A stretch of 54,086 nucleotides of DNA from Syntrophomonas sp. (GTDB lineage: Bacteria > Bacillota > Syntrophomonadia > Syntrophomonadales > Syntrophomonadaceae), in assembly GCA_039679805.1 (NCBI GenBank), contig JBDKUD010000215.1, positions 1-54,086 of the forward strand, given 5' to 3'. This document shows, piece after piece, positions 9,383-53,006 of this stretch. A program made the translations under genes and the position numbers. The notes under the pieces were generated by a model. It saw only the letters and a program-made list of their open reading frames with translations, was not told where the DNA came from and made no database searches. Position 1 is the stretch's first letter. Each line of letters opens with the position of its first letter.

Positions 9383-9423
9383 ACTAAAATAGTTCAATTT
9401 ACTTATTATTTAAATTAAATAAT

Positions 9424-9512: not shown

Positions 9513-9526
9513 TATAGCAATGCGCA

Positions 9527-11134: not shown

Positions 11135-11153
11135 TATTTGAGGAGGAACAATA

Positions 11154-12452: not shown

Positions 12453-12504
12453 GGGGTTAGGAGTAAGGTGTGAGGTGTAAAATACCCCTAACCCCTTACA
12501 CCTC

Positions 12505-13290: not shown

Positions 13291-13323
13291 TTATACCGGA
13301 ATATATGAAAGAAGGTTAAAGCT

Positions 13324-14362: not shown

Positions 14363-14389
14363 TTATGGATTTATAAGGAGGAATGACTA

Positions 14390-15391: not shown

Positions 15392-15402
15392 GAGTAAAAC
15401 CT

Positions 15403-16149: not shown

Positions 16150-16152
16150 GAG

Positions 16153-16968: not shown

Positions 16969-16973
16969 TTTAT

Positions 16974-17621
16974 ATGAACAAAAAACTAATGATTTTTACC
17001 GACTTTGACGGAACCATAACTACCGAAGATGTATGTGCTGCCATGGTACTAACTTATGCCAGTGAAGGCTGGGAAGAAGTAAATCAGCTATGGATGGATG
17101 GGGTAGTCTCAACCGAGGAGTGTGCTCAAAAAACACTGGACCTTATGGACGTAACACCAGAGGAATTAGAGTTATTGTTCCAGGAAGCTATAATAGATAA
17201 AACTTTTCCCGCCTTCCTGGTATGGCTTGAGCAAAATGAATATCCACTTAGTATTGTAAGTGACGGTTATGACAATTATATTAAAGTTATTTTGGAGAAA
17301 AACGGAATTAATGTGCCCTATCATGCCAATCATTTGGATTATGAAGATGGCTGGAAGATCAAGTGTTCCTATTTGTTTACTGATTGCCAGAAATGTGGAG
17401 TATGCAAGACAAAAATCATCGAAAGTTTATTAAAGCCTGGATACACAAGTGTTTATATAGGGGATGGATATTCAGATATTTGCCCGGCTGACAAATGCGA
17501 TATCCTTTTTGCTAAAAAATATCTGGCTGAATATTGTAAAGAAAAGGGCATTCCGTTTTATCCCTATCAAAATTTTAGTGATGTAAAAACTAAGCTGCAG
17601 GAGTTATTTGATATTAGTTAA
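16974..17621 (+). CDS. HAD-IB family phosphatase (MtnX-like)
   Basis: DFDGTIT nucleophile motif near the N-terminus and GDGYSD motif IV; 215 aa. It is the last gene of the thiamine operon. Confidence 0.75.
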   Translation: MNKKLMIFTDFDGTITTEDVCAAMVLTYASEGWEEVNQLWMDGVVSTEECAQKTLDLMDVTPEELELLFQEAIIDKTFPAFLVWLEQNEYPLSIVSDGYDNYIKVILEKNGINVPYHANHLDYEDGWKIKCSYLFTDCQKCGVCKTKIIESLLKPGYTSVYIGDGYSDICPADKCDILFAKKYLAEYCKEKGIPFYPYQNFSDVKTKLQELFDIS

Positions 17622-19127: not shown

Positions 19128-19320
19128 ACAGGAATATTATTCTGAGTCGCATAGATTAATTTGATCTTCAAAAATACAGGTAACTAGTGGAGTTAATTGA
19201 TAAGTGAGGATCAAAATACAATAAGTATTATATTACCAATGCAGATAAGAGCAAAATAATTTGTCAAAAAATAAAACATTCTGATGAAAAAATATATTAT
19301 AATAAATACAACAATTAAAT

Positions 19321-19414
19321 ATCTCCGAGCCTACTAACCTAATGTAATACCATGGTTTTTAGGCCGTTAGGGTACATCGGGAAACTGGTGTGCCTCCCAG
19401 AGTGGAAAGGAGAA
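19321..19414 (+). promoter_or_regulatory. Moco/Wco-type riboswitch aptamer, copy A
   Basis: ATCTCCGAGCC...AGGGT-ACATCG-GGAAAC-TGGTGT-GCCTCCC-AGAGT-GGAAAGGAGA. The order of blocks matches the Moco RNA motif, and P1 is TCTCC/GGAGA. Confidence 0.7.
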
Positions 19415-19437
19415 GCTGAATACGGTTAGATACTGCG

Positions 19438-30528: not shown

Positions 30529-31269
30529 ATGAGCTTTAGTAAGAAAAAGTGTATTTGTTTTGTCTTAATCCTTCTTTTTTCAATCATTTTCGCTCCCTTA
30601 TCCCGTGCAGCGTCCAGCTCAGTCGCTCCAGGCAATGGCGACGGCCAGGGACAAAACGCAGATATAGCCCTGACCCTTGTTTCTTCCTCTGTGGCGGACG
30701 GCGCTACGAATGTACCGGTCAATCCTGTAATCCAGCTTAATTTCAATAAAAACGTTGTAAATATCGCGGTGATGGAAAACAATTCAAAATGCTTCCACCT
30801 TACCGATGAAAATGGTGCTCCAGTTCCGATAAGAATAATTTTCCCCGATGATCAAACGCAAAGCGAATTCAAACGTAATGTGTTCATAATTCCCCAGGAA
30901 AAACTGAAAATAAATTCAAAATACGAACTGGCAGTGGACAGTAAACTGTGCGCCAAGAATAACACCAACATAGACAGTGCCCATGTCATTACTTTTGAAG
31001 CTGGTGCTGCAGCGGCGGGCGAGCAGAATAAAGCCCTGCTTAAACTGGGTAATGACATTACAGTCTACAATACCGCTCTTAAAAAGACGGAATATTCTGT
31101 GCCGCACAAAAAAGAAGTACAAAATATTGACAAAACGCGTCAACCTGCTGAGAATAAAGTGCTGGATATTGATAAGTTGTCCTCAATACTCCTTTTCGTA
31201 ATAGCAGCGGTTTTTGTCTGTTCCAGCCTGTTTTTTATCCTTCAAAAGAGGAAAGGCAAGAATCAATAA
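30529..31269 (+). CDS. Small secreted Big_5 (SbsA-Ig-like) domain protein with C-terminal TM anchor
   Basis: Signal peptide, then GNGDGQGQ, then SSSVADGATNVPVNPVIQLNFNKNVV, and a C-terminal helix LSSILLFVIAAVFVCSSLFFIL. Paralogue of 46365-47138. Confidence 0.8.
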   Translation: MSFSKKKCICFVLILLFSIIFAPLSRAASSSVAPGNGDGQGQNADIALTLVSSSVADGATNVPVNPVIQLNFNKNVVNIAVMENNSKCFHLTDENGAPVPIRIIFPDDQTQSEFKRNVFIIPQEKLKINSKYELAVDSKLCAKNNTNIDSAHVITFEAGAAAAGEQNKALLKLGNDITVYNTALKKTEYSVPHKKEVQNIDKTRQPAENKVLDIDKLSSILLFVIAAVFVCSSLFFILQKRKGKNQ

Positions 31270-35906: not shown

Positions 35907-35930
35907 TTATAACTTTAGCAGCCAAATAAT

Positions 35931-36017
35931 TATCCTTTCCGCCATGGGAGGCATGGCCGTTTCCAGCCAAACCCTGTTCTCTCGCCATAGTCGTGATGAC
36001 CTCAGGCAAGGAGAATC
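35931..36017 (-). promoter_or_regulatory. Moco/Wco-type riboswitch-like aptamer, copy B (divergent variant)
   Basis: Minus strand reads GATTCTCCTTGCC...AGGGT-TTGGCT-GGAAAC-GGCCAT-GCCTCCC-ATGGC-GGAAAGGA. The 5' CCGAG block is replaced by CCTTG. Confidence 0.5.
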
Positions 36018-36212
36018 GGATAGATATTAAATTTAAACAATATTAAAACTTTCCTATATTTTATTACAGTTTAATTTATATCAGTTTTTAGCTAAAAGTC
36101 AAGATAAGTAATTTTTTGTTGTTTATTGTTTATTAATAGTATATAAATAGGAGGAGGAGAATAAATCCTTTCATTGAAGAATATAACTATATATTTTTAT
36201 TATTTTGGAGTG

Positions 36213-36297
36213 TATTTCCGAGTCTTTTGTCCTGTTGCTATGAAAGACCAAAGGGTGTCTTCGGAAACGGACGCGCCTCCCATGGCGGAAAGGAAAA
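36213..36297 (+). promoter_or_regulatory. Moco/Wco-type riboswitch aptamer, copy C (first of a tandem pair)
   Basis: TATTTCCGAGTC...AGGGT-GTCTTC-GGAAAC-GGACGC-GCCTCCC-ATGGC-GGAAAGGAAA. P1 is TTTCC/GGAAA. It is followed by hairpin CTTTTCA/TGAAAAG (36317-36338) with no T-tract. Confidence 0.6.
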
Positions 36298-36379
36298 CGG
36301 AATATATTAATAGAAGCTTTTCAGAAAGGGGTGAAAAGTGCCATTCCCTAAATAAGTCAATTTTATAAGCTGTGAGCAG

Positions 36380-36477
36380 AATTTCCGAGTCTTTTGTCCT
36401 GCGGCATTCTTGGCTATGGCGAAAGATCAAAGGGTGTATTTGGAAACGAGTACGCCTCCCATTATGGAAAGGAGAAA
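36380..36477 (+). promoter_or_regulatory. Moco/Wco-type riboswitch aptamer, copy D (second of a tandem pair)
   Basis: AATTTCCGAGTC...AGGGT-GTATTT-GGAAAC-GAGTAC-GCCTCCC-ATTAT-GGAAAGGAGA. Confidence 0.65.
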
Positions 36478-36493
36478 ACTGAATTTAGAAATT

Positions 36494-36665: not shown

Positions 36666-39600
36666 TTGAGGTTAAAAAGGATCCCACTTATTCTTTTATT
36701 ATCCCTAATCATGGTTTTAACTGTAGGGGGCCTGACGGTCTATGCTGGCACAAACCTGCCGAATGTTGTGAGTTATGGCGTATATAATTTTGATCCCAAC
36801 AGCAACGATGTGACGACTACTGTTCCCCAAGGAACCGTTGTGTCAACGGGTAATGACGGGGTGATTTATAATAATCCGCCATGGACTACACTGACAGATG
36901 TGCCTTATGTTTTCGGCAACAATGTTGGCATCGGAATTGAATTTGCCGTGAACGTGATACCAGAAGCCTATTGGACTGCTAATCAGGCTTGTTTTCATAT
37001 GTATGACGCATCTAATACCCCTGTTCCCATCAACGTAATAAGATTAGGTACTGTCTACGATGGTACGAATGGAAACAGAAACTACATATTTGTGGTCCCC
37101 CAAGGCCAACTGCAGCCTGTAAGCACATATAAAATAATTATAGATTCAACGCTGCAGTCAAATAATACCATGACAGCCGGTAAACAACAGGAAATTACGC
37201 TTTCAACCGCTGCTGCGCCCGATACTACTGCGCCATCTGTGAGCAGCAGCGACCCGGCGAACGCAGCTACAGGAGTAGCAATCAACAAAACCGTAGCGCT
37301 TACCTTCAGTGAGAACATATCAGCAGGCAGTACCTATGATCAGATCAGCTTTAAAGACGGAAGCAACGCTGATGTACTGTTTACTAAGGGCATCAGCGGC
37401 AGCACGTTAACCCTGGATCCAGTATCCGACCTGGACTACTGCACCTATACCGTGACTATACCCGCTGATGCTGTAAAAGATGCCGCAAACAATGACTTAG
37501 CCAATGAATACTCCCTGACATTTAGCACCGGACTCAGCGCGACAATTTCAAGGTCCAGAGCAACAGCCGGAGCAAGTTTTACTATAAACATTACCGGAGC
37601 TAAAGACGCTTCCGATACGCTTTTGACCGGTAACAATACAGTCACTGTGACTAATGGAGGAGCCGAAGTATATCGTGGCGATGTTGCGTTTACTGATGGC
37701 GCAGCAAACGTTACAATCCCGGCAAGTTCTACACCAAACAGCATTACCACAGTAGGGACCTATAACTTAACAGTAGCTATTGCCGGAGTGACTGAGCAGC
37801 CGACCGTTCCTTTGACGATCAATGCAGGGTCTATTGACTCCACGCAGTCCACTGCGGTTATCGACCAGGCTTTAAGCAAGGGGACTACCCGGGCAATTGC
37901 AGTAACGCTTAAAGACATATTTGGAAATCCAATAGCCAACAAAAATATCAAAACAAAGGTTACTATAGCCAACAACTATTCAATAACAAATGAATCTTAT
38001 ACTGTTGACGGAACAACAATGACGGCGTCAGGATTTACAACAGCTGTATATACTGATGTCAGTGGACAATATACAGTAAATGTGGTCATGCCGGGCGCCA
38101 TTGATCCTGGCGACGGAGTATCGATCCAGATAGCACAAAATAACGGCACATCATTTATCGGCGATCCGTTTGCATACTATGAACCTATCCCAACACCGAT
38201 GGTGACCAATGCAACGTCTGATGCCACTCATATTGTGTTAACCATGGATCAGCCCTTGTTAGGAACAGCAGCCGATACAAATGCCTTTACCATACACGGG
38301 GCGGCGAGCAATCCGACAGTTGCGAATGCTGTAGTATCCGGAACCAATGTATCGTTAACCTTGAATGCAGCCATTGCTTACAATGAGACGATTACACTGG
38401 ATTATGCCAGAACAGGCATTAATGATTTAAATAACGGACCTGGTTCTCAAGTGGCCGACTTTACTAGCCAACCGGTCATCAACAATACACCTGAACATGC
38501 TGCAGCGCCACTATTAGTCAGTGCAGCTTCCAATGTCCAGGGAAATGTTATAACGGTAATCTTTGATAAAGAAATGGCTGCTCTGCCGGCAGCACCAGCC
38601 GGCTTTTCCGTTGCAGTCGACGGCGCCAGCGATGTGGTTACTGAGGTTGCAAACAATACGGATAGAGCCAAAGTTGAACTGCTGTTGACGACAGCAATAA
38701 ATTACGGACAGACAGTAACAATCTCCTATAGCCCGGGAACGGTAACCGCACTTGATAATGGTGCTTTAGCCGGGTTTACCGATCAGGCTGTAACAAATAA
38801 TACAATACAGGACGGCTATATTACGACACTGCTTGGTGATGGTTCTTCAGGTAATTCTGGGGATAACGGACCGGCAACCTCAGCCACGATGGCAAGGACT
38901 ATTTATGGCTGCACAGTTGTAGATGAGATGGGGAATATCTATATTTCTGATTCATCCAATGGCAAGGTGCGAGAGATTGCCGCGATTACCCATACCCAGT
39001 TCGGAATTAACATGACGGCAGGGAATATTTATACTGTAGCTGGAACTGGGTTAACTAGATCTTATGCGGTAACTGATGAAGGACAACTTGCAACAGCAGT
39101 AAATCTGATGAATTCTGCAAATGGTATTGCTGTTGATGATTCGGGAAATCTCTATATTGCTGATACCCAAAACAGTAGGATCCGTGAAGTGGCCAACACA
39201 GACCATAACCAATATGGCATTACTATGACTACGGGATGTATTTACACCATAGCCGGTGTTGGGGCAACAGGTCTTACATCTAACACTTATACAACTGCCA
39301 TAGCGGAAGAAGGGGTGGCTGCGACAACTGCCCACCTGTGCAATCCGAATGCACTAATTTTTGACACGACTGGTAATCTGTATATTGTAGATCAAAACAA
39401 CAACAGGATCAGAAAGATGGATACCAGCGGAATTATAAATACAGTTGCAGGCACAGGAACTACAAATCCTACTGCTGATAGCGGGCCGGCGATCAGCTTT
39501 AACATGAGGCCTGCAGCCATAACCTTTGATAGTTTAGGAAATATATTTATCGGAGACGGGATATGCGGTAGAATTTACAAAATGGACACCGGTGGGAATA

Positions 39601-42254
39601 TCACGACCTATGCTGGTACATTAATCCCGAGTGGCTCTAGTTATACCATTAAAGATGTAGGCAGCGCGCCTCCTCTCACTGAAGTCGGTTTCAGACCCGT
39701 CAGTTTGATGTTTGATAGTGCGGACAACTTATATGTGGCGGAAGGCAACTGGGACCGCGTCAGAAAGATCGGTATCGATGGCAGTGTTACTTTAGCCGCA
39801 GGGTATGGGTATGCAGCCGGTGTAGCTAATGTGTTTAATGGTGATAATATTCCGGCTACTGCAGCATTGCTGAATAGTGCCCAATTTGCGTCCCTGGATA
39901 AATGGGGAAACATGTATATTATGGATAATCAAAGCATGCGGATTCGTTTTGTTAAAAACCCGCAGGTAGTAGCGGAAGCACCTCCGGTTGTTAACAGCGC
40001 AGTAACTTCTGATGAGACACATATTGTACTCACCATGAGCCGAGCATTATTAGGCACTGCAGTAAACCCCGCAGCTTTCACAGTATCAGGAGCAGCTTCA
40101 AATCCTACAGTAACCGCAGCAGCAGTTTCAGGTACCAGTGTGACACTGACACTAAGTTCAGCAATTGCTTATAACGATACGATAACCGTAAGTTACGCAA
40201 AAACAGGCTTCGACAGTGCAGCTGGGTATAGCAATTTGACTGCAGTGGAAAACTTCACCAATCAGCCAGTAACAGTAACCGTGCCTGCTCCGGGAACTGT
40301 TGCTGTACCGACGGCTGTACCCTCAGGGACTGCTGTAACGGCAGGCACTCAGGTAACGCTGACAACGATGACTGCAGGTGCAACCATATATTACAGCCTG
40401 GACGGCAGCGACCCGACAGCAGCAAGTACAGCATATAACGGCCCGATTACCATTAATAATCCTGTAACCATCAAGGCTATCGCAGTTAAGGACGGTATGA
40501 TAAACAGTACAATCCTGACAGTGTCCTATACAATCAAAAGTGGCAATGGTGGGCCTTCTAGTTTGCCCACTTGGCCGGATGATGCTACATTGACAGTTAG
40601 CAAAAATCAAACTACAGCAACCCTTACCTGGACGGAAGCCACCGGTGAGGTGACCAAATATAGAATATATCGCGGCGTGTCTGGAATTGCTGATACACTG
40701 ATTGCTACAATTGATGCTCCGGCAACAACTTATACAGATACAACACTACAATCAGGTGGTTATACTTATATCTTCAAAGTTGAAGCCGGGAATAACGCAG
40801 GCTGGACCAACAGCGGACCCAGCGCCCAGACTGAGGGCGGACAAAACCCCTTGATTCTTGATGGGGCCTATTTAACTACAGCCACTCCCAGCAGCAGCAC
40901 TTCTGATACAGGAGAATCCGTTGATGACAGCACTAGTGTACCGGTCAAACCAACGATCAAATTCATATTTGAAAGAAGTGTGGCACAAGATGAACTCTGG
41001 TCAAACAATAAGTTATGTTTTACCATGAAAGACAGCTCTGGTGCCAGCGTTTCTTTAAATGTTTTTAAAATTTCAAATGGTACTGAAATCAACCCGAACG
41101 AAAGGCATAATTTATTTATCACGCCCTTAAGCAATCTGACTGCGGGAAATACTTATTATATTACTATAAGTAAAAATTTACAGGCCAATAACGGCAAGAC
41201 GCTTGGTGAAGCTTATGACGGCAAAGATATTGTAATCAGCTTTACTGTGGCCGGGGGTACAAATTCCGGCGGGGGCACTGTTACTACGGATGGTCCCACC
41301 TATACCAACGGTTACGGCTCTGTCGATCCGGCTGTCGGGGCGAGCGTCGCCCTGGATGAAGCAGCCATGGTAGTCATACCGCCCGATGCCCTTAAAGAAA
41401 CTGGTTCTGTCAATGTAAACATCAAGAAGGTAACCACATCGCCAGCAGTTCCAGCAGGATTTAAAGTGGCCGGCGATGTGTACGAGTTTAGTGTAGGAAA
41501 TAAGACATCCTACAGCTTTGCTAAAAGTGTTGCTTTAACGTTTAATTTTGACGCCTCCCAAATCGAGGCGGACGAAGTTCCGGAAATTTACTACTATGAC
41601 GAAGTCCTGAAAAAATGGGTCGGCATCGGGGGCACAGTGTCCGGCTCGACCATCACTGTGCAGGTAAATCACTTTACGAAGTTTGCCGTACTGGCTGTCC
41701 CCAAAGCCGTAGAACCAGTAAAACCAGTAGTACCAGTAGTATCATTTACCGATGTTAACGGAAATTGGGCGGCAGCTAATATAACAAAATTAGCTGCAAC
41801 AGGTGCAATTAAGGGATATACGGACGGAACCTTCAAGCCGGACAACAATATTACCAGGGCTGAGTTCGTTACGGTTCTGGTCAAAGCACTTAAATTAGCG
41901 CCTGCAAGCGGAAAAACCTTCAACGATACTGCAAACAGCTGGAGCAAAGATTACATTGCAACCGCTGTTGCCAATGGTATTATCAATGGTTACAGTGATA
42001 CCACATTTGGCCCTGATGATCCCATCACCCGCGAACAAATGGCGGTGATAATTGTTAAGGCTGACAAGTTAAGCAAAATTCCGAGTGGAAAAATATTTGC
42101 CGACAACGGTGCAATTTCAGCCTGGGCCAAAGATGCTGTCAGCACGGCCAGCGGAAACAGTATTATCGCAGGGTACGCAGACAATACCTTTAGACCCCAA
42201 AATTATGCTAGCAGGGCTGAAGCAGTTACGGTCATTGTCAAAATATTGAAATAA
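36666..42254 (+). CDS. 1862-aa secreted cell-surface protein: Big_5/SbsA-Ig modules, Big_1-like and SwmB-like Ig domains, NHL-repeat propeller, chitobiase-C-like domain, FN3, three SLH domains
   Basis: TTG start 9 nt after AAGGAGAG, with a signal peptide. APDTTAPSVSSSDPANAATGVAINKTVALTFSE (Big_5). NHL repeats GNLYIADTQNSRIREV and similar. GATIYYSLDGSDPT. SLH triplet at 41745-42251. Confidence 0.9.
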   Translation: MRLKRIPLILLLSLIMVLTVGGLTVYAGTNLPNVVSYGVYNFDPNSNDVTTTVPQGTVVSTGNDGVIYNNPPWTTLTDVPYVFGNNVGIGIEFAVNVIPEAYWTANQACFHMYDASNTPVPINVIRLGTVYDGTNGNRNYIFVVPQGQLQPVSTYKIIIDSTLQSNNTMTAGKQQEITLSTAAAPDTTAPSVSSSDPANAATGVAINKTVALTFSENISAGSTYDQISFKDGSNADVLFTKGISGSTLTLDPVSDLDYCTYTVTIPADAVKDAANNDLANEYSLTFSTGLSATISRSRATAGASFTINITGAKDASDTLLTGNNTVTVTNGGAEVYRGDVAFTDGAANVTIPASSTPNSITTVGTYNLTVAIAGVTEQPTVPLTINAGSIDSTQSTAVIDQALSKGTTRAIAVTLKDIFGNPIANKNIKTKVTIANNYSITNESYTVDGTTMTASGFTTAVYTDVSGQYTVNVVMPGAIDPGDGVSIQIAQNNGTSFIGDPFAYYEPIPTPMVTNATSDATHIVLTMDQPLLGTAADTNAFTIHGAASNPTVANAVVSGTNVSLTLNAAIAYNETITLDYARTGINDLNNGPGSQVADFTSQPVINNTPEHAAAPLLVSAASNVQGNVITVIFDKEMAALPAAPAGFSVAVDGASDVVTEVANNTDRAKVELLLTTAINYGQTVTISYSPGTVTALDNGALAGFTDQAVTNNTIQDGYITTLLGDGSSGNSGDNGPATSATMARTIYGCTVVDEMGNIYISDSSNGKVREIAAITHTQFGINMTAGNIYTVAGTGLTRSYAVTDEGQLATAVNLMNSANGIAVDDSGNLYIADTQNSRIREVANTDHNQYGITMTTGCIYTIAGVGATGLTSNTYTTAIAEEGVAATTAHLCNPNALIFDTTGNLYIVDQNNNRIRKMDTSGIINTVAGTGTTNPTADSGPAISFNMRPAAITFDSLGNIFIGDGICGRIYKMDTGGNITTYAGTLIPSGSSYTIKDVGSAPPLTEVGFRPVSLMFDSADNLYVAEGNWDRVRKIGIDGSVTLAAGYGYAAGVANVFNGDNIPATAALLNSAQFASLDKWGNMYIMDNQSMRIRFVKNPQVVAEAPPVVNSAVTSDETHIVLTMSRALLGTAVNPAAFTVSGAASNPTVTAAAVSGTSVTLTLSSAIAYNDTITVSYAKTGFDSAAGYSNLTAVENFTNQPVTVTVPAPGTVAVPTAVPSGTAVTAGTQVTLTTMTAGATIYYSLDGSDPTAASTAYNGPITINNPVTIKAIAVKDGMINSTILTVSYTIKSGNGGPSSLPTWPDDATLTVSKNQTTATLTWTEATGEVTKYRIYRGVSGIADTLIATIDAPATTYTDTTLQSGGYTYIFKVEAGNNAGWTNSGPSAQTEGGQNPLILDGAYLTTATPSSSTSDTGESVDDSTSVPVKPTIKFIFERSVAQDELWSNNKLCFTMKDSSGASVSLNVFKISNGTEINPNERHNLFITPLSNLTAGNTYYITISKNLQANNGKTLGEAYDGKDIVISFTVAGGTNSGGGTVTTDGPTYTNGYGSVDPAVGASVALDEAAMVVIPPDALKETGSVNVNIKKVTTSPAVPAGFKVAGDVYEFSVGNKTSYSFAKSVALTFNFDASQIEADEVPEIYYYDEVLKKWVGIGGTVSGSTITVQVNHFTKFAVLAVPKAVEPVKPVVPVVSFTDVNGNWAAANITKLAATGAIKGYTDGTFKPDNNITRAEFVTVLVKALKLAPASGKTFNDTANSWSKDYIATAVANGIINGYSDTTFGPDDPITREQMAVIIVKADKLSKIPSGKIFADNGAISAWAKDAVSTASGNSIIAGYADNTFRPQNYASRAEAVTVIVKILK
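38818..39958 (+). other. NHL-repeat beta-propeller region of the 1862-aa protein
   Basis: Six repeats of the type GNIYISDSSNGKVREI, GNLYIADTQNSRIREV, GNLYIVDQNNNRIRKM, GNIFIGDGICGRIYKM, DNLYVAEGNWDRVRKI and GNMYIMDNQSMRIRFV. Confidence 0.8.
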
Positions 42255-44802: not shown

Positions 44803-44848
44803 ATGACATGGATTATAAACCTTGTATACAAAGGAGAGTGAAAAATCC

Positions 44849-46081
44849 ATGCATATCCTTAAACGTAATCCTTTATTATCTACATTTTTAATAATACTGC
44901 TTTTATTTACGTCACTAATTGCAGGTGCCCAGACAGTACTGGCAGGTGACGGCAGCGGCGGCGGGAAAAATCCACCTTTATTACGGAGTGCCTGTTTGAC
45001 GACTATTAATAATAATGTCTCTGCCACAGGTGATTCTTTGGGAGAGAATATGTCGCTGGCCAATAATCCTCCTACGATTAGAATTGAATTTGCAACCAAT
45101 ATTGCAGATAACACAGTATGGAATGATAACAAAAATTATGTAACGTTATATGACGGTGACCATAAGGCAGTATCTTCTGATGTAAGCAGAATTGACCCTA
45201 CCGTAACTTTTGCGGAGAGAAATTATATTTTTGTTAAACCTTCGGCAGCATTACAACCGGGGTCATATACAATTGTTGTAGATGCCAGGCTTACTTCCAA
45301 GAACGGAATATCATCTGGTCAGGAACAAACGGTAAGTTTCAGTGTTGCTGGAAATACTGACAGCAATAATAACACTAACAACGATACCGGCAGCGGTACC
45401 AATGCTGGTAATAATAACAATATTGGTAATAATACCGATACCAATACAAACAATAATAACAATGATACCAATGATACCAATGATACCAGTAACAACAACG
45501 ATACTGGCAGCAATACTAATAACAGTAATAACAGCAATAATGATAGCAGTATTGTTTTAACAGACATTAGCGGACATTGGGCTGGAAACAATATTAATAA
45601 ACTCGTTAAATCAGGTGTTATCAGCGGTTATCCCGATGGGACATTTAAACCTGATAAAACTATCAGCAGGGCAGAGTTTGTAACTATTATTGTTCGTGCT
45701 TTCAAACTGCCGCCCAAAGCAGGCAAAGTGTTTGCAGATACGGCTAATCATTGGGCTAAGGACTCTATTGCCACAGCCGCTGCATACGGGATAGTTAATG
45801 GTTATAACTCAACTAAATTTGGCCCCGACGATAATATTACCCGGGAACAAATGGCAGTAATCTTAGATAAGGCTTTGAAACTTAACAATGCTGCAGGCGG
45901 CAAAAATTTCATCGACCAGGCTAAGATTTCAACATGGGCTAAAGATGCCGTTGTCAGAGTAAATCAAAATGGCATATTTGCAGGTTATCCGGATAAATCA
46001 TTTAAACCCAAAGCTAGTGCTGCTAGAGCAGAAGCAGCGACTGTTATTTTAAAAGCATTAGATAAAGTAGGAAGTAAATAG
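44849..46081 (+). CDS. Secreted Big_5-like domain protein with Asn/Thr/Asp-rich linker and three SLH domains
   Basis: I chose ATG 44849 (RBS AAGGAGAG) over the ORF-track TTG 44822. Signal peptide, then GDGSGGGK. Low-complexity linker at 45351-45549 and SLH triplet at 45557-46078. Confidence 0.85.
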   Translation: MHILKRNPLLSTFLIILLLFTSLIAGAQTVLAGDGSGGGKNPPLLRSACLTTINNNVSATGDSLGENMSLANNPPTIRIEFATNIADNTVWNDNKNYVTLYDGDHKAVSSDVSRIDPTVTFAERNYIFVKPSAALQPGSYTIVVDARLTSKNGISSGQEQTVSFSVAGNTDSNNNTNNDTGSGTNAGNNNNIGNNTDTNTNNNNNDTNDTNDTSNNNDTGSNTNNSNNSNNDSSIVLTDISGHWAGNNINKLVKSGVISGYPDGTFKPDKTISRAEFVTIIVRAFKLPPKAGKVFADTANHWAKDSIATAAAYGIVNGYNSTKFGPDDNITREQMAVILDKALKLNNAAGGKNFIDQAKISTWAKDAVVRVNQNGIFAGYPDKSFKPKASAARAEAATVILKALDKVGSK

Positions 46082-46101
46082 ATTAAGTTTAAAACTAAAT
46101 A

Positions 46102-46192
46102 ATCTCCGAGCCTGTTAACCTGAGGTTTAATGGTTTACAGGCCGATAGGGTGCAGTGGGAAACTGCTGTACCTCCCAGTGCGGAAAGGAGAA
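46102..46192 (+). promoter_or_regulatory. Moco/Wco-type riboswitch aptamer, copy E
   Basis: ATCTCCGAGCC...AGGGT-GCAGTG-GGAAAC-TGCTGT-ACCTCCC-AGTGC-GGAAAGGAGA. It is a close paralogue of copy A and begins 20 nt after the upstream stop codon. Confidence 0.7.
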
Positions 46193-46214
46193 GCTGATAC
46201 GGTTGGAATATCGC

Positions 46215-46245
46215 GGCGAAGTGCTTTGTGCAGTTCGCCTTTTTT
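46215..46245 (+). terminator. Intrinsic terminator (expression platform of copy E)
   Basis: GGCGAAGTG / CAGTTCGCC stem (one mismatch) followed by TTTTTT. It is nearly identical to the copy A terminator. Confidence 0.75.
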
Positions 46246-46364: not shown

Positions 46365-47138
46365 ATGATAAATGGGATTAGGGGAAAGAGACCATTAATA
46401 TTAGTCTTATTGGCTGTATTATGCTGCATGTTTATAGCCCTGCCGGTATTTGCCGCTGAAGGTGATGGAAGCGGAGGAGGCAGGGATGTACCTCTTGCTC
46501 TGGCTTCATCCAGTCTGGCTAATGGACAGAGCAATGTCCCGGTTATGGCCAATATTAATCTTGCTTTTAACAAGAATGTAGTTAACCTGGCAGTCAAAGA
46601 TAATAATATGAAATGTTTCAGCCTTTCCGGTAATGGCATTAGTGTCCCCATTCAGGTGATTATGCCGGATGATCAGGTTGATTTCGAACATCGCCGGAAT
46701 ATTGATATTGATCCTTTGCAGGATCTGAAACCAGGTACTCTTTATAAATTAGTAATTTCAGGTCAGCTCCAGGCCAAAAACGGAATGAGCTTGGGTACTC
46801 CTGTGTCTGTCAGCTTTACAACTGCAGGTGCTGCCAATGTAAATCAAAACACCAGCACCGGACCAAATACCGGCAGCATTAAGTCCGGCTCTGCTCAAAC
46901 AACACAGCCAACAACATCAGCTGAAAAGGTAACAACTGAGAAAGCTGCCAAAGAAAATACCAAGGCAGCTGCAGAGAATACTAAAGCAAAAGCAGCAAAA
47001 GCAAAAACAAAATCTGCAGCAAAAACTAAAAGTGAAGAAAAGGAAACTAAATCGACCAGTACTAAAGGCATTGCTGCTGCAGCAGGACTGATAATAGCAG
47101 CTGGAGTATATGGGTATTATAGATTCAGTTATAAATAA
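46365..47138 (+). CDS. Small secreted Big_5 (SbsA-Ig-like) domain protein with Lys/Ala/Thr-rich spacer and C-terminal TM anchor
   Basis: RBS AAGGGGG and a signal peptide, then EGDGSGGGR, then SSSLANGQSNVPVMANINLAFNKNVV. C-terminal helix GIAAAAGLIIAAGVYGYY. Confidence 0.85.
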   Translation: MINGIRGKRPLILVLLAVLCCMFIALPVFAAEGDGSGGGRDVPLALASSSLANGQSNVPVMANINLAFNKNVVNLAVKDNNMKCFSLSGNGISVPIQVIMPDDQVDFEHRRNIDIDPLQDLKPGTLYKLVISGQLQAKNGMSLGTPVSVSFTTAGAANVNQNTSTGPNTGSIKSGSAQTTQPTTSAEKVTTEKAAKENTKAAAENTKAKAAKAKTKSAAKTKSEEKETKSTSTKGIAAAAGLIIAAGVYGYYRFSYK

Positions 47139-47231: not shown

Positions 47232-48245
47232 TTGAAGACAACGAAGAAAAAACTAATATATTCATTTTTAGCACTCGGACCCCTGGCTTTTATATTTATT
47301 ACCTTATTCGTAGGCAGATATCCAATCTCTATACCAACGGTGGCCAAAATATTGTGGTGTAAAATAACTTTGACACCATGTAATATTCCGGAGATGTACC
47401 AAACTATAGTTTGGGATATTCGTTTGCCCAGGGCTATACTTGGTGCCCTGGTAGGCGGCTGCCTGGCTATCAGCGGCGCTTCATTTCAGGGATTGTTCCG
47501 CAATCCCCTGGTAAGTTCAGGTATTCTGGGTGTAACTTCCGGTGCCGGATTTGGTGCGGCGCTGGCAATTATTCTTTTCAAGACAACTGCACCGATTTAC
47601 ATATCCGCCTTTCTTTTTGGCGGTCTGGCGGTTTTATTCAGCTTTTTAATAGGAAAGGTTTATAACACAACACCGACTATAATGCTGGTTCTGGGTGGTA
47701 CTATTGTATCATCGGTGTTCTCAGCCTTAATTTCATTTACCAAATATGTGGCTGATCCAACTAATGAACTGCCGGCAATAGTTTTTTGGCTGATGGGCAG
47801 CCTGGCTTCAGCCCGGTATCGTGACATCATGATAGCTGGCATACCTATGGTAATAGGGATAGCCGGCCTGCTGGCAGTGAGATGGCGGATCAATGTCCTT
47901 TCCATGGGCGATAAGGAAGCTCATTCTTTAGGGATTAATACTAAATTAAATAAAGGAATAGTAATAGTTTGTGCTACATTGGCTTCAGCCGGAGCCGTAT
48001 GTGTAAGCGGAATTATTGGCTGGGTCGGATTAGTTATTCCTCACATCGGACGTATGCTGGTAGGCAATGACAACCGCATACTGATACCGGCCAGTCTCTC
48101 CCTGGGGGCCTGCTTTCTTATTTTGGTCGATAATCTCAGCAGGATGTTAACCGGATCAGAAATACCGTTGGGTATTCTCACCGCACTGGTTGGCGGCCCC
48201 TTCTTTGTATATTTGTTAAAGCGGACCAAAGGAGGAGGGTGGTAG
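47232..48245 (+). CDS. FecCD/BtuC-family ABC transporter permease
   Basis: TTG start after TAGGAG; 337 aa and polytopic. RLPR...GA.LA.SG...Q...RNPL..P..LG motif and C-terminal GGPFF.YLL. Confidence 0.85.
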   Translation: MKTTKKKLIYSFLALGPLAFIFITLFVGRYPISIPTVAKILWCKITLTPCNIPEMYQTIVWDIRLPRAILGALVGGCLAISGASFQGLFRNPLVSSGILGVTSGAGFGAALAIILFKTTAPIYISAFLFGGLAVLFSFLIGKVYNTTPTIMLVLGGTIVSSVFSALISFTKYVADPTNELPAIVFWLMGSLASARYRDIMIAGIPMVIGIAGLLAVRWRINVLSMGDKEAHSLGINTKLNKGIVIVCATLASAGAVCVSGIIGWVGLVIPHIGRMLVGNDNRILIPASLSLGACFLILVDNLSRMLTGSEIPLGILTALVGGPFFVYLLKRTKGGGW

Positions 48246-48248
48246 ATT

Positions 48249-49106
48249 ATGCCTTTAATAGAAGCTAAGAATATATCCTTTGGTTATGATGAGCACGATG
48301 TATTTCAGGATATTAATTTCCGGGTAAAAAAGGGTGAGATTTTTTTCCTGTTAGGCCCGAACGGCTGTGGAAAAACAACTCTTCTTGATTGTGTGCTGGG
48401 ATTATTAAAGCCCAGAAACGGAAATATATTAGTAAACGGTACCAATATTAACGATATTCGTCCTGAAGCCATAGCCAAACAAATAGCTTATGTACCCCAG
48501 AGTCACGAAAAAACATTTCCTTATAAAGTTATAGATATAGTACTGATGGGACGGGCTTCATATATAGGATTGTTTAATTCCCCATCAGACGAGGATATGT
48601 CTATAGCCGAAGAAGCTTTAAAAATGGTGGGAATCAGCAGGTTAAAAGACAGACGTTATACACAGTTAAGCGGTGGTGAAGGGCAGCTGGTGATGATTGC
48701 CAGGGCCCTGGCACAGAAAACACCCTTGGTTGTTATGGACGAACCAACTGCTCATCTGGATTTTAAACATGAGCTGGTTATTATGGAAACAATAGTTCAA
48801 CTGGTTAAGGAAACAGGATTGGCTATACTTATGGCTACCCATTTTCCCAATCACGCTTTTTACTTCGAAAACAATGATATTGCTACCCGGGTGGCTATGA
48901 TGAGCCAGGGCAATTTTATAGCGGTGGGGCGTGCTTCCGAAGTTCTGTCGGAGAAAAATCTGAAATTACTCTACAATATTAATGCCCGGGTGGTGTCATA
49001 TGCTATTGACGAAGAACGGGAGCTTAAGCAAGTTATTCCCATCAGCACTGCAGCATCGGCTGAATCTATTGATATGAGAGAAGGTACATATAATGAAGCA
49101 AAATAA
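48249..49106 (+). CDS. ABC transporter ATP-binding protein (FepC/BtuD-like)
   Basis: Walker A GPNGCGKTT, signature LSGGEGQ, Walker B LVVMDEPT. Confidence 0.9.
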   Translation: MPLIEAKNISFGYDEHDVFQDINFRVKKGEIFFLLGPNGCGKTTLLDCVLGLLKPRNGNILVNGTNINDIRPEAIAKQIAYVPQSHEKTFPYKVIDIVLMGRASYIGLFNSPSDEDMSIAEEALKMVGISRLKDRRYTQLSGGEGQLVMIARALAQKTPLVVMDEPTAHLDFKHELVIMETIVQLVKETGLAILMATHFPNHAFYFENNDIATRVAMMSQGNFIAVGRASEVLSEKNLKLLYNINARVVSYAIDEERELKQVIPISTAASAESIDMREGTYNEAK

Positions 49107-50187
49107 AAACCATTATAGCTGGTTTATAATCTTATGCCTGATATTTACCCTGCTCTTGGCAGGCGGATGTACAAGCAAACAAATCGGAGAATCACAATCT
49201 GCCGCCAATACCAGAACAATAACTGATTGTGCCGGCAGACAGGTAAAAATTCCGGTTAAAATAAACCGGATTGCTTGTTTGTGTCCGGAATCAGGATATA
49301 CCCTGGCGATGTTTGGAAAAGGGGATAAAATAGTAGCTGTAGTAGGCGGATTAAAGAGAGATGTTATTTTTACCAATATGTATCCGCAAGTAAAAAATTT
49401 ACCGGTACCCAAAACCAGTGCTTCAATTAACATTGAAGAATTGGTACGAAGCAATCCGGATATTGTATTTGTAAAAGAGGATACTATGCGCAGTGAAGCT
49501 GAAGTACAAAAATTAAATATGAGTCACATACCGTTTTTGGTGGTGACATATAACAATATAGAACAACAGCAATTTGCTGTTGATATGATCGGCAAAGTTG
49601 TTGGGAGCGAGAATAAAGCTAAAGTATATCGGGCCTATTACAAGAAACTGGTCGATTTGGTTCAGTCGCGGGTGGCAGACATTCCTATGAAGGATCGGGT
49701 CAGGATATATCATTCTATCAGTGAAGCTACCAGGACTGATGCCAAGGGGACCCTGGCAGCTGATTGGACCAATATAGCCGGAGCCAATAACGTTTCCGTA
49801 ACTGCAAATTTAAAACAAGTAGAGGGTAATTATTTTGCCAGTCTGGAACAGATTCTCTTGTGGGATCCGGATTATATATTTGTTAATGATCCCATAGTAG
49901 TTAAATATATAATGGGTAATAATCAATGGTCATCGCTCAAGGCTGTAAAAAACAAGAGGGTTTTGCCTTTGCCTGACGGTATTTCCCGCTGGGGTCATCC
50001 TTCTTCACCGGAGACTCCGCTGGCCATTCTCTGGACAGCCAAAACCTTATATCCCGATAAATTTAAGGATGTTGATATGGCAGCCGAGATAAAATACTTC
50101 TATAAAGAATTCTTTGGTTATCAGCTATCAGACGTGGATGTGCAGAAGATATTAAGTGGTGTTGGAATGAGAGAGTTATTAAAATAA
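49093..50187 (+). CDS. Periplasmic-binding-protein (BtuF/FhuD class, PF01497-like) substrate-binding probable lipoprotein
   Basis: Overlaps the ATPase gene by 14 nt. The N-terminal hydrophobic segment ends in LLAGGC. Size and position are typical of cluster-A binding proteins paired with FecCD permeases. Confidence 0.75.
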   Translation: MKQNKNHYSWFIILCLIFTLLLAGGCTSKQIGESQSAANTRTITDCAGRQVKIPVKINRIACLCPESGYTLAMFGKGDKIVAVVGGLKRDVIFTNMYPQVKNLPVPKTSASINIEELVRSNPDIVFVKEDTMRSEAEVQKLNMSHIPFLVVTYNNIEQQQFAVDMIGKVVGSENKAKVYRAYYKKLVDLVQSRVADIPMKDRVRIYHSISEATRTDAKGTLAADWTNIAGANNVSVTANLKQVEGNYFASLEQILLWDPDYIFVNDPIVVKYIMGNNQWSSLKAVKNKRVLPLPDGISRWGHPSSPETPLAILWTAKTLYPDKFKDVDMAAEIKYFYKEFFGYQLSDVDVQKILSGVGMRELLK

Positions 50188-50227
50188 ACATGTTGCCAAC
50201 AATACTATTAGATTGGGAGGTTAATTG

Positions 50228-50956
50228 GTGAAAATATATGTCGCTATAGATGATACAGATAGTTTGGAAGTTGGAGCAACCGGACAATCCGCCAACGAAT
50301 TGCGAAAACTTATTAAAGATAAAGGCTGGGGTACAACAGAGCCGGTTACCAGGCACCAGTTGCTGCTGCATCCGGATGTACCATATACTTCTCACAACAG
50401 TTCCATGTGCTTCATCGCTGATATGGAGGAGGGCAGTTTGGAGGAATTTATTAATTGTGCAGCCGACTTTCTAAAAACAACGAGTGCCCCAGGCTCAGAC
50501 CCCGGACTTTGTGTGGCGGATTATGAATGCATAAAAAACATAGATAAACTGATGAATTTTGGATTTAAGGCTAAAGAGGAAGTATTAAGTAAGGAACAAG
50601 CTTATAAAACCGCGGAAGACTGTGGTGTTCATCTTTCTGAACACGGTGGGACCGGGCAGGGTATCATTGGTGCACTGGCAGCTATTGCACTTCGGATGAC
50701 AGGCAACGATGGAAGATTTCAGGGCCGAACTCAACTGAAAGACATCGGGGAAAGTATGCAAGTAAAGGAAATAATCTCAACTACGGAGATAGAGGAAGTG
50801 CAATCGATAGACGGGCAGGTGCTGACTGACAATGAGATACTTATTATAGGAGATAAAATAAAAACAGTTCTGCTTGATGGCAAAAGAAAACTCCTGGTGC
50901 ACCGTGAAGAAGACAGTTGGCATACCTGTAATAATAAACATCTGAAAAAATATTAG
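50228..50956 (+). CDS. Uncharacterised enzyme-like protein, paralogue 1 of 3 (possible TiaS N-terminal kinase-domain-like fold)
   Basis: I chose GTG 50228 (7 nt after GGGAGG), which gives MKIYVAIDDTDS like its paralogues. Motifs HQLLLHPDVPYTSHNSSMCF, SDPGLCV and HGGTGQGIIGALAA. Confidence 0.7.
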   Translation: MKIYVAIDDTDSLEVGATGQSANELRKLIKDKGWGTTEPVTRHQLLLHPDVPYTSHNSSMCFIADMEEGSLEEFINCAADFLKTTSAPGSDPGLCVADYECIKNIDKLMNFGFKAKEEVLSKEQAYKTAEDCGVHLSEHGGTGQGIIGALAAIALRMTGNDGRFQGRTQLKDIGESMQVKEIISTTEIEEVQSIDGQVLTDNEILIIGDKIKTVLLDGKRKLLVHREEDSWHTCNNKHLKKY

Positions 50957-51025
50957 GTGAGTAGCTAAGAATATTAGATCATAAACGATAGCAGCCACAA
51001 GGATACTATTAGGAGGTAACTGATC

Positions 51026-51766
51026 ATGAAAATATATGTTGCTATTGATGACTCCCGACAGCTTGACGGGGGTAAGGCAGGTGTAACTGCTTCTTCATTA
51101 ACCAAAGCCATAGAAGATAACGGATGGGGGACATGTACAATTCCAAGTCGGCATCGGCTATACCCAAATCCTGTTACCGGCTGTAAAAAACACAACACTG
51201 CACGTAGTTTTTCTGCAGAAATAAATGAAGAAAATCTGAGTGAATTTATTGACTATGCCTGTAATATGATAAAAACAATTGTGACTCCTGATTCCAATAC
51301 CGGGTTGGCTATTGCTGTCCCTGAACAAATGGAAAATACTGATGAGCTAATTGAATATGCGTATAAAGCCAAAGAAGAATTGGTGAGTAAGGATGAAGCT
51401 TTTGAATTGGCTAAAAAACCAGGTATATATTTATTTGAATTAAGCGGCAGCGGGCAGGGTATAATCGGTGCACTGGCTGGAGCCGGGCTTAATATGACGG
51501 GAAACGATGGGCAATTCAGAGGCAAACTGGAATTAAGTAAAGAGGAATACTATATTGCTACCGTAAAGGAAATTATAGAGAAAACATATGTTGAGCAAGT
51601 AAAAAATATGGATTTCGAAAATTTAAGTGATGATGAATATGTCCGCATGGGTGAGAAGGTAAAGGTAGTAAAGCTTGATGACAAATACACGTTGTTGGTC
51701 TTTCCAACTGAAATAGAATACCCGAAATGGCAAACGAGTACTACTCATATGCTTAGAATTTTTTAA
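51026..51766 (+). CDS. Uncharacterised protein, paralogue 2 of 3 (motif-degenerate copy)
   Basis: MKIYVAIDDSRQ..., HRLYPNPVTGCKKHNTARSF, and SGSGQGIIGALAGAGL retained. RBS AGGAGG. Confidence 0.7.
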   Translation: MKIYVAIDDSRQLDGGKAGVTASSLTKAIEDNGWGTCTIPSRHRLYPNPVTGCKKHNTARSFSAEINEENLSEFIDYACNMIKTIVTPDSNTGLAIAVPEQMENTDELIEYAYKAKEELVSKDEAFELAKKPGIYLFELSGSGQGIIGALAGAGLNMTGNDGQFRGKLELSKEEYYIATVKEIIEKTYVEQVKNMDFENLSDDEYVRMGEKVKVVKLDDKYTLLVFPTEIEYPKWQTSTTHMLRIF

Positions 51767-51812
51767 TCAAGATGTGGCAGGTCAATTAAGGCCATATACG
51801 AGGAGGGTAATA

Positions 51813-52574
51813 ATGAAAATTCTTGTTTCCATTGATGATACAGATACTATTAAAACGGATGGTATTGATGTTATAGGCACAGGGGAACTGGCGGGTATGA
51901 TAGCAGAGGCCATAGAAAGAAACAAATGGGGCCGGTGTGCACCGATTACCCGGCACCAGTTGCTTATACACCCGGATATACCATATACATCTCACAATAG
52001 TTCGATGTGCTTCGAAGCAGACATCGACACTATTTTTTTGAATCAGCTGATTGATTTTGCAGCTGATTTTTTAACTTGTGAAAGCACACCCGATTCAGAC
52101 CCGGGACTATGTGTCGCGGTTACTGATCGTATAAGCCGGCCGGGCTGGCTTATTGCTTTTGGTTATATGGCAAAAAATTATATAATGACCAAACAGGATG
52201 CTTATGACATGGCCAAAAGATTAAACATTCACCTTTCAGAACATGGCGGAACCGGTCAGGGAGTTATTGGTGCACTGGCGGGAGCAGGATTACGCCTTAG
52301 CGGGAATGACGGGCGATTTAAAGGAAAAATGAAGATTAAAGCAAAAGATAATATCATATCGGTAGCTGGTATTCGCTCGCAGGGAAAGGTGGATATGGTA
52401 AAGTGCCTGGAAGAGGGAATAATACTGCAGGATAATGATATGATTACTCTGGGCGATTCTGTTAAAACAGTATTACTATACGGAAAAGCAGTCTTGCCAG
52501 TTTACCCGATAAAAGAAGAGGAAAATCAGGTCCGTTGGCAAACTTATTCAAAGAAGCAATTAAAAGATTTCTAA
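51813..52574 (+). CDS. Uncharacterised enzyme-like protein, paralogue 3 of 3
   Basis: I chose ATG 51813 (RBS GAGGAGGG) over the ORF-track GTG 51774. MKILVSIDDTDT, HQLLIHPDIPYTSHNSSMCF, SDPGLCV, HGGTGQGVIGALAGAGL. Confidence 0.7.
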   Translation: MKILVSIDDTDTIKTDGIDVIGTGELAGMIAEAIERNKWGRCAPITRHQLLIHPDIPYTSHNSSMCFEADIDTIFLNQLIDFAADFLTCESTPDSDPGLCVAVTDRISRPGWLIAFGYMAKNYIMTKQDAYDMAKRLNIHLSEHGGTGQGVIGALAGAGLRLSGNDGRFKGKMKIKAKDNIISVAGIRSQGKVDMVKCLEEGIILQDNDMITLGDSVKTVLLYGKAVLPVYPIKEEENQVRWQTYSKKQLKDF

Positions 52575-52608
52575 TTTGTTAAAGCAAACTCGAGGAGATG
52601 ATAGGCAA

Positions 52609-52809
52609 ATGTGGCGTATTAACGATAAAGGAAAGCATGAGTTCTCGGGCGGGAAGGAAGATTGGAATAATGCTGCTCAGATAGCGGAAAGCTGTTCTGA
52701 ATTTAAACCTGATGATGAGGATGAAATGGTGGCTGATGAACCAGTTTCCTGCTATAACTGCCAGTACCGGCGTTGGACAGTTGAATCTTTTGTATGTTAT
52801 AAGAAATAG
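52609..52809 (+). CDS. Small acidic Cys-containing hypothetical protein (66 aa)
   Basis: ATG 52609 downstream of GAGGAG. CSEF...CYNC...C spacing suggests a possible small metal-binding or zinc-ribbon-like protein. I recognised no family. Confidence 0.4.
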   Translation: MWRINDKGKHEFSGGKEDWNNAAQIAESCSEFKPDDEDEMVADEPVSCYNCQYRRWTVESFVCYKK

Positions 52810-52976: not shown

Positions 52977-53006
52977 GGCTCCCGGTCCGGGAGCCTTTTT
53001 AGTTTT
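52977..53006 (+). terminator. Intrinsic terminator inside the leader of the downstream ABC binding-protein gene
   Basis: GGCTCCC-GGTCC-GGGAGCC followed by TTTTTAGTTTT, 47 nt upstream of the TTG start at 53053. Confidence 0.75.

Follow-up and report, generated by a model that had tools for sequence, protein, structure and literature searches.

Why would a bacterium encode three tandem relatives of an archaeal RNA-modifying enzyme straight behind an importer? The question is raised by a 54,086-nucleotide (nt) stretch of DNA from Syntrophomonas sp. (contig JBDKUD010000215.1 of assembly GCA_039679805.1), called the window here. Three consecutive genes in it, copies 1, 2 and 3 (Table 1), carry motifs that a first-pass annotation, made from the sequence alone, likened to the kinase domain of TiaS, the archaeal tRNA(Ile2) 2-agmatinylcytidine synthetase. 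Judged by motifs, profiles and a structural model, the genes are predicted to encode stand-alone enzymes with the fold of that domain and its ATP/Mg-binding motifs. Two copies appear catalytically intact in these motifs and one is degenerate. Homologues in other genomes adjoin genes for tungsten or molybdenum (W/Mo) uptake, and this points to a role in handling these metals.

Homology to the TiaS kinase domain

The three genes were found as plus-strand open reading frames in direct succession, with products of 242-253 amino acids (aa), in agreement with the first-pass annotation. The N-terminus MKI(Y/L)V(A/S)IDD is read in 3/3 copies. The longer motifs HQLL(L/I)HPD(V/I)PYTSHNSSMCF, SDPGLCV and HGGTGQG(I/V)IGALA are all read in copies 1 and 3. 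A strong Shine-Dalgarno sequence stands ahead of every copy. Copy 1 likely starts at GTG 50228, with the ribosome-binding site (RBS) GGGAGG at 50215-50220 and a 7-nt spacer; copy 2 likely starts at ATG 51026 behind AGGAGG, and copy 3 at ATG 51813, preceded by the RBS GAGGAGGG. Pairwise BLASTP gives 43% identity between copies 1 and 2 (E 1e-66), 47% between copies 1 and 3 (E 6e-79) and 37% between copies 2 and 3 (E 2e-53). This similarity is far above chance, and on sequence grounds the genes are clear paralogues. The nearest homologues lie in Syntrophomonas metagenome-assembled genomes (96% identity), and the family as a whole forms 5,879 clusters at 90% identity and 823 at 50%.

The likeness to TiaS proposed in the first-pass annotation holds as homology, by profile matches and by a Foldseek match to the Thr18-Cyt34 kinase domain (TCKD). 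The motif order given there is seen in HMMER alignments to TiaS chains of the PDB, as GIDDTDS, RLNPTIPYKTRGNGAVSF, NPG and GRGLIGALAA. With the Pfam model PF22641 (TiaS_TCKD; gathering cut-off 27 bits), copy 1 scores 31.6 bits and copy 2 scores 16.4, and copy 3 gives no match; among 56 diverse family members, 25 match at E <= 0.01. The first 154-155 positions of the NCBIfam TiaS model match all three copies (E 1e-6 to 1e-11). A family profile built from 43 sequences matches PDB TiaS chains with E 8e-9 over profile positions 1-157.

Structure comparison gives the same result. An alignment-based AlphaFold model, made for copy 1 only (pLDDT 89.9, pTM 0.87), was searched with Foldseek against the PDB, and TiaS structures were the only strong matches (3amt_A: E 1.3e-9, probability 1.00, root-mean-square deviation 2.5 Å over 160 columns). 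The fold common to the copies and TiaS (PDB 3AMT, 3AMU, 5XOB, 3U02) spans about 157 residues. It carries the same order of motifs: DDTD, the Thr18 equivalent, a P-x-IPY-x-T/S-x-x-N loop, (N/D)PG and G-x-G-x-IGALA. Entry 3U02 was considered as a solved stand-alone homologue and rejected, because it is a piece of TiaS from Pyrococcus furiosus. In the HMMER alignment the DDTD of the family corresponds to TiaS Asp8, Asp9 and Asp11, and its conserved threonine to Thr18. DDTD and the autophosphorylated Thr18 reportedly have a catalytic role in TiaS. All 56 members have DDTD, and at least 90% have the Thr18 equivalent; copies 1 and 3 have both, and both are absent from copy 2. The least confident stretches of the copy 1 model are the loops bearing the Thr18 equivalent and YTSHNSS, which suits mobile active-site loops.

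Outside this domain the copies part from TiaS. TiaS has an FLD, an OB domain and a zinc ribbon, whereas the last 85 residues of the copy 1 model form a small beta-rich domain for which Foldseek found no PDB match. The first-pass annotation had predicted stand-alone proteins without tRNA-binding domains, and this is borne out by the length of 242-253 aa and by a Foldseek alignment of about 160 TCKD columns only. Pfam searches of the copies and the Foldseek search with the copy 1 model gave no FLD, OB or zinc-ribbon match. Copy 2 shows a sub-threshold TiaS_FLD match (17 bits vs a cut-off of 21), and TiaS_FLD was matched in 0/56 family members. On the TiaS equivalog model NF040849 (cut-off 600 bits) the copies score 40.6, 43.3 and 27.2 bits over model positions 1-154 of 422, more than tenfold under the cut-off. 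The polar loop reads YTSHNSS here and YKTRGNG in TiaS, with extra conserved His and Cys residues here. Host and context differ as well: bacterial and W/Mo uptake here, archaeal and translation for TiaS. Public records name family members mostly 'hypothetical' and occasionally 'tRNA(Ile2) 2-agmatinylcytidine synthetase' or 'DNA-binding protein with Zn-ribbon'. The TiaS annotation of some of these bacterial records is probably wrong.

A better match than TiaS is methanogenesis marker protein 11 (Mmp11, TIGR03280), of which positions 132-283 align to residues 1-156 of all copies (E 4e-16 to 8e-10). The scores are 38-59 bits vs a cut-off of 255.8, and the match covers the C-terminal half of the model only. 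Mmp11 is another uncharacterised TCKD-containing protein without tRNA-binding domains. The copies have no counterpart of its N-terminal domain, about 130 residues long. Since the function of Mmp11 is likewise uncharacterised, it gives no functional lead.

Two features of the gene cluster had been missed in the first-pass annotation. One is the degeneration of copy 2, which is altered at precisely the motif sites quoted above. It reads DDSRQ in place of DDTD, then NPVTGCKKHNTARSF and SNTGLAI. It is without the HPD(I/V)PYTSHNSSMCF loop, SDPGLC and the Thr of the downstream G-T-G, a position occupied by Ala-Gly; the glycine-rich GxGQGIIGALAG motif is retained. The degenerate N-terminus is found again in an independent cluster representative (P0139), and orthologues keep the motif. 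Compared with the three orthologues that a complete Syntrophomonadaceae genome (L002) carries, copies 1, 2 and 3 have dN/dS of about 0.03, 0.11 and 0.09, ratios that are rough because dS is saturated. These values suggest purifying selection on all three copies. Copy 2, at about 0.11, therefore seems to be maintained by selection and not to be a decaying pseudogene. It is probably a non-catalytic paralogue or subunit.

The other feature is a 66-aa Cys4 protein encoded behind copy 3. Alignment identifies C29, D35, E39, C48, N50, C51, R54, W56 and C63 as its invariant residues. Its gene lies directly downstream of the enzyme gene in 35 of the 72 loci with enough sequence. The Cys4 module is also fused to the enzyme C-terminus in 31/150 family representatives, typically of about 295 aa. 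This conserved mini-protein is, on such evidence, a predicted partner of the enzymes. No Pfam or NCBIfam model matches it, and a profile search of PDB sequences was also empty. A homologue search with the protein itself returned 15 close relatives only, all named hypothetical. In a single family member of 826 aa (P0164) the enzyme is joined to a DAO-type FAD oxidoreductase that carries a BFD-like [2Fe-2S] domain; this fusion is possibly an artefact of gene calling.

The operon and its counterparts in other genomes

The copies had been placed in a riboswitch-gated operon, immediately after an importer. This agrees with what we find: an RF01055 aptamer, the RNA class linked to the molybdenum or tungsten cofactor (Moco/Tuco), lies 5' of the operon, and the gene for a MolA-like protein ends at 50187. 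The aptamer lies 159 nt ahead of the first operon gene, and its alignment has the P3 hairpin deleted. The hairpin that follows it has a fold energy of -16.4 kcal/mol (z -1.4, alone not significant); from its position it is a probable expression platform. P3-less Moco RNAs correlate with tungsten cofactor genes, and at least 15 of them occur in Syntrophomonas wolfei (Regulski 2008). The riboswitch of the operon is putatively of the tungsten-cofactor type.

The importer resembles MolBC-A (HI1470-HI1472) of Haemophilus influenzae, a published molybdate/tungstate importer (PMC4031551) and its closest solved relative; the substrate here is predicted. Among PDB sequences the permease matches HI1471 MolB first (E 1.7e-75) and HmuU next (1.7e-48), and the lipoprotein matches 4ovk (5e-32) and HI_1472 MolA (9e-29). 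Ahead of the importer genes stands a Big_5-type surface gene, as in most Gram-positive loci. Its product is hydrophobic at residues 5-35 by hydropathy scan, and its C-terminus reads as hydrophobic. Gene spacing, the lack of a strong internal terminator and the presence of a terminal one suggest that the copies are co-transcribed with the importer. We know of no TCKD-like partner of Haemophilus MolBC-A.

Gene context was then compared across loci gathered from genomes and metagenomes, with genes labelled by tblastn, Pfam and NCBIfam. The loci were also scanned for Moco RNAs, using a covariance model derived from seven P3-less examples. Counts refer to 50 non-redundant loci whose flanks reach at least 4 kb; Firmicutes, Bacteroidota and further groups are represented. 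An importer lies within 5 kb of the TCKD-like gene in 39/50 loci: 23 are MolBCA-type, 13 energy-coupling factor (ECF)-type and 5 Tup, with two kinds in two loci. An independent Mo/W marker lies within 5 kb in 18/50, and 42/50 have an importer or a marker. The neighbourhood analysis that the first-pass annotation had called for thus finds homologues beside genes of W/Mo uptake, storage, insertion and regulation. Five kinds of uptake component occur beside them (MolBCA-type, a novel ECF-type, TupA, WtpA and TonB-dependent receptors). Further repeated neighbours are MoSto-like storage proteins, MoeA, ModE-like regulators and Moco riboswitches. Moco RNAs were detected in 17 related loci, immediately 5' of the TCKD-like gene in L025 and L039. 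Importer type has been swapped five times and regulator type twice, and the W/Mo uptake link has been kept; this is the strongest argument for a W/Mo-handling function.

Individual loci illustrate these exchanges. In Desulfotomaculum and Pelotomaculum, MolBCA gives way to a pair of ABC ATPases, a CbiQ T-component and a 197-aa multi-transmembrane (TM) protein that lacks annotation. These loci retain the TCKD-like and Cys4 genes and the anchored Big_5-type protein. Locus L067 carries a Moco RNA with TupABC and, divergent from them, the TCKD-like gene, which is followed by a MoSto-beta-like gene (E 1.5e-70 against PDB 2ogx_B) and then DUF364. MoSto-like genes adjoin the TCKD-like gene in four further loci (L039, L011, L049 and L018). 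MoeA lies directly upstream of it in L045. In L019 the stretch directly downstream holds three tandem Moco RNAs, a W/Mo formate dehydrogenase and MoeA. A distant Bacteroidota subfamily (about 38% identity) has, in this order, a ModE-repressor-domain protein, WtpA (377 bits vs an equivalog cut-off of 355), the TCKD-like protein, a 190-aa membrane protein, a lipoprotein and a TonB-dependent receptor. The membrane proteins of about 190 aa from Bacteroidota, the Gram-negative L047 and the Firmicute ECF-type loci are mutually homologous, with E-values that come from small custom databases and are indicative only. This multi-TM family (about 170-240 aa, with a conserved P-x-x-x-PG-H/K/R motif) has no Pfam or NCBIfam model. 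From sequence and position, it may be a new tungstate/molybdate permease or ECF S-component.

Some details of these loci are recorded in their own right. L067, like the four other loci with MoSto-like genes an anaerobe metagenome contig with a single MoSto-beta-like gene, has that gene at 11096-11971, followed by a DUF364 'putative heavy-metal chelation' protein (12066-12815). The three tandem Moco RNAs of L019 (11176-11756) stand before a formate dehydrogenase in two reading frames, followed by MoeA-type and NuoE/F-like genes; the split is probably an in-frame UGA for selenocysteine. In the ECF-type loci of Desulfotomaculum and Pelotomaculum an HdrD-like Fer4/CCG protein of about 664-694 aa is encoded near and downstream of the Cys4 gene.

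A proposed step after tungstate or molybdate import

As a class of function, an ATP-dependent cytoplasmic step after tungstate or molybdate import is what we somewhat favour; our confidence in any particular chemistry is far lower. ATP use, the oxyanion substrate, the assembly of hetero-oligomers and the chemistry itself are all inferred. The first-pass annotation had proposed carbonyl-activating, amidine-forming enzymes. The substrate is more likely tungstate or molybdate, or its recipient, than an organic carbonyl, because the neighbours include a Moco/Tuco RNA, a MolBC-A-like importer, TupA, WtpA and MoSto-like, MoeA and ModE-like proteins.

Such a system might work as follows. A shortage of the tungsten (or molybdenum) cofactor would lead the P3-less Moco-type riboswitch to permit transcription. 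The surface Ig-like protein, the MolBC-A-type importer and the TCKD-like enzymes would then be made, and the importer would take up tungstate or molybdate. The TCKD-like proteins would draw on ATP in capturing, activating or handing over the oxyanion, the likely recipients being the cofactor-insertion machinery (MoeA and adenylylated molybdopterin, MPT-AMP) or a store. The Cys4 protein could serve as acceptor or co-subunit, and copy 2 as a structural subunit. The three TCKD-like proteins and the Cys4 protein would together form the cytoplasmic arm of a W/Mo acquisition operon, possibly as a hetero-oligomer. The YTSHNSS loop and the conserved residues H44, H49, H57, C62, C96, H136 and H140 are candidates for a new substrate site; all of them are lost in copy 2.

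For micronutrients, importers are commonly coupled to a cytoplasmic 'trapping' enzyme that uses ATP. The molybdenum storage protein MoSto is a kinase-fold protein that uses ATP to handle molybdate or tungstate. MoSto (MosA/MosB; PDB 2OGX) resembles the proposed system in the logic of ATP-dependent oxyanion handling and shares no homology with it; its fold belongs to the amino-acid kinase family and is unrelated to TCKD. No MoSto-like gene lies within the window. The known tungsten storage protein Tub was rejected as a relative, being a TOBE protein.

A bolder version of this proposal is tentative, and on balance we doubt it. Here the enzyme and the Cys4 protein would constitute an unrecognised ATP-dependent system that activates or inserts tungstate (or molybdate). 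It would be a dedicated step into the tungsten cofactor or a store, perhaps with W/Mo discrimination, recruited repeatedly to MolBCA, ECF-type, Tup, Wtp and TonB-dependent systems. The fold is already known, and some members are already tagged by Pfam. What appears to be undescribed is the W/Mo uptake link, the Cys4 partner and its fusions, the degenerate paralogue and the 190-aa membrane protein.

Several points weigh against a W/Mo-handling step. To our knowledge the canonical Moco/Tuco pathway needs no such enzyme. Our literature search found no biochemical data on any family member, and nothing on stand-alone TCKD proteins, on Mmp11 function or on TCKD in Mo/W metabolism. The metal-binding site in the TCKD-like proteins is a candidate only, and what has been published on P3-less RNAs and the tungsten cofactor is a correlation that falls short of proving specificity. 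Eight of the 50 loci have neither an importer nor a Mo/W marker. The locus sample consists of the 80 closest metagenomic relatives and is hence biased, and importer classes were set by similarity to proteins of the window and of the L008 ECF locus.

Among the other explanations, the one we rank next, although we consider it unlikely, keeps carbonyl activation (phosphoryl transfer, then amine attack) on a small organic molecule. Here that molecule would be a pterin, an imported or salvaged molybdopterin or Moco precursor, that is phosphorylated or amidated and so trapped in the cell. The conserved TCKD catalytic motifs are in keeping with this, and the linkage to ECF-type and BtuCD-like importers resembles kinase-coupled vitamin salvage. 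Foldseek also gives a weak similarity to the pterin pyrophosphokinase HPPK (E 1e-3 to 2e-2), which carries little weight because it stands among generic ferredoxin-like folds. However, the co-occurring binding proteins are of the oxyanion type (MolA-like, TupA and a WtpA above its equivalog cut-off), and MoSto-like oxyanion stores adjoin in 5 loci. The FLD, in which the TiaS residues that hold C34 and agmatine are said partly to lie, is absent here. A regulatory autokinase or ATP sensor is slightly less probable still. Autophosphorylation on the conserved Thr, as on Thr18 of TiaS, would gate the importer or signal W/Mo status without transforming the metal. TiaS is reportedly a dual protein and RNA kinase (Terasaka 2011). 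The Thr18 equivalent is conserved widely enough for this (at least 90% of members), and five kinds of uptake component accompany the gene, as would fit a generic accessory. Against it, riboswitches and ModE-like proteins already regulate, three paralogues and a Cys4 protein seem excessive for a switch, and any interaction with the importer is purely putative.

We consider it improbable that the TCKD-like protein energises, as ATPase subunit, a new importer based on the membrane protein of about 190 aa. The TCKD-like gene abuts a conserved multi-TM gene in L091-L093 and L047, overlapping it in L091-L093, and there is no ABC ATPase in the operon. Yet the window and 23 other loci have a complete MolBC-A with its own ATPase and no such membrane protein, and the ECF-type loci carry two ATPases of their own. 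Least probable is TiaS-like cytidine modification of bacterial tRNA or another RNA, with the Cys4 protein as the counterpart of the zinc ribbon. The homology to TiaS, the synthetase name that some databases give to members and the position of a Cys-rich module after the enzyme, as in the TiaS domain order, would all suit it. But FLD, OB and zinc-ribbon matches are missing, and the NCBIfam TiaS scores are 27-43 bits vs a cut-off of 600. The core of the Cys4 module is acidic, D/E-rich and invariant and has no PDB or Pfam relative. In the loci examined, the context is metal uptake throughout and never translation. Bacteria, moreover, have TilS as their counterpart for tRNA(Ile2) modification. A tRNA-modifying role was rejected on domain content and gene context.

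The rest of the window and the wider meaning

Beyond the operon, the window holds further riboswitch-led units (Table 1). There are five Moco-type riboswitches in the 54 kb, two of them in tandem and all apparently without P3. A recurring type of surface protein (44822-46081, 46365-47138, 30529-31269, and 7656-8675 in L008) has a signal peptide, then G-D-G-(S/T)-G-G/N and a Big_5-type Ig domain, and is anchored by SLH repeats or a C-terminal TM helix. Behind a thiamine pyrophosphate (TPP) riboswitch, positions 9626-17621 encode a ThiD-ThiE fusion, ThiC, a metallo-beta-lactamase-fold protein, an NMT1/THI5-like ABC transporter, ThiM and a HAD phosphatase.

Table 1. Features of the window and, where a locus is named, of related loci
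Feature	Position	Strand	Details
TPP riboswitch	9418-9524
MOT1-family major facilitator superfamily molybdate transporter homologue	17749-18873	-	Pfam E 1.8e-54; divergent from riboswitch at 19311
Moco-type riboswitches	19311-19428; 35916-36033; 36204-36311; 36371-36490; 46092-46206	+; -; +; +; +
Giant S-layer-anchored protein after Moco-type riboswitch	19639-28257		2872 aa; RCC1, fn3, SLH
MoxR AAA_3 / unknown / TgpA-transglutaminase operon after Moco-type riboswitch	35849 down to 31263	-
Giant S-layer-anchored protein after Moco-type riboswitch	36666-42254		1862 aa; Big_5, NHL, SWM repeat, SLH
Moco/Tuco riboswitch aptamer RF01055, P3 stem absent	46092..46206	+	62.2 bits vs gathering score 36
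Terminator-like hairpin and U6 directly 3' of aptamer	46215..46245	+	Read from sequence
Surface protein: signal peptide, GDGSGGG motif, Big_5 Ig-like domain, low-complexity linker, C-terminal membrane anchor	46365..47138	+	Pfam Big_5 E 5.9e-11
MolB-like type II ABC importer permease (FecCD family)	47232..48245	+	Pfam FecCD E 2e-85
MolC-like ABC ATPase	48249..49106	+	Pfam ABC_tran E 1.4e-33
MolA-like substrate-binding lipoprotein (Peripla_BP_2)	49093..50187	+	Pfam E 1e-17
TCKD-like paralogue 1 (copy 1)	50228..50956	+	242 aa; catalytic motifs intact
TCKD-like paralogue 2 (copy 2)	51026..51766	+	246 aa; DDTD, Thr18 equivalent and His/Cys-rich loop lost; GxGxIGALA kept
TCKD-like paralogue 3 (copy 3)	51813..52574	+	253 aa; catalytic motifs intact
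66-aa Cys4 protein (C-x5-D-x3-E ... C-x-N-C-x2-R-R-W-x6-C)	52609..52809	+	RBS GAGGAG at 52592-52597
Intrinsic terminator closing operon	52977..53005	+	8-pair stem, 7 G-C, then T-run
Multi-TM family members	L008 9166-9759; L025 13434-13940; L047 7138-7851; L091 8701-9255; L092 8680-9249; L093 8671-9249
HdrD-like Fer4/CCG protein	L008 18558-20642; L010 10992-12986; L014 2924-4777		Adjoins Cys4 gene in L010 and L014

W/Mo enzymes, among them formate dehydrogenases and aldehyde oxidoreductases, hold a central place in the life of syntrophic, acetogenic and gut anaerobes. The path of tungstate from uptake to insertion into the pterin cofactor, and the separation of W from Mo in cells, are poorly understood. 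A large unstudied family with an ATP-using fold, tied by context to W/Mo uptake in several phyla, offers a concrete protein candidate.

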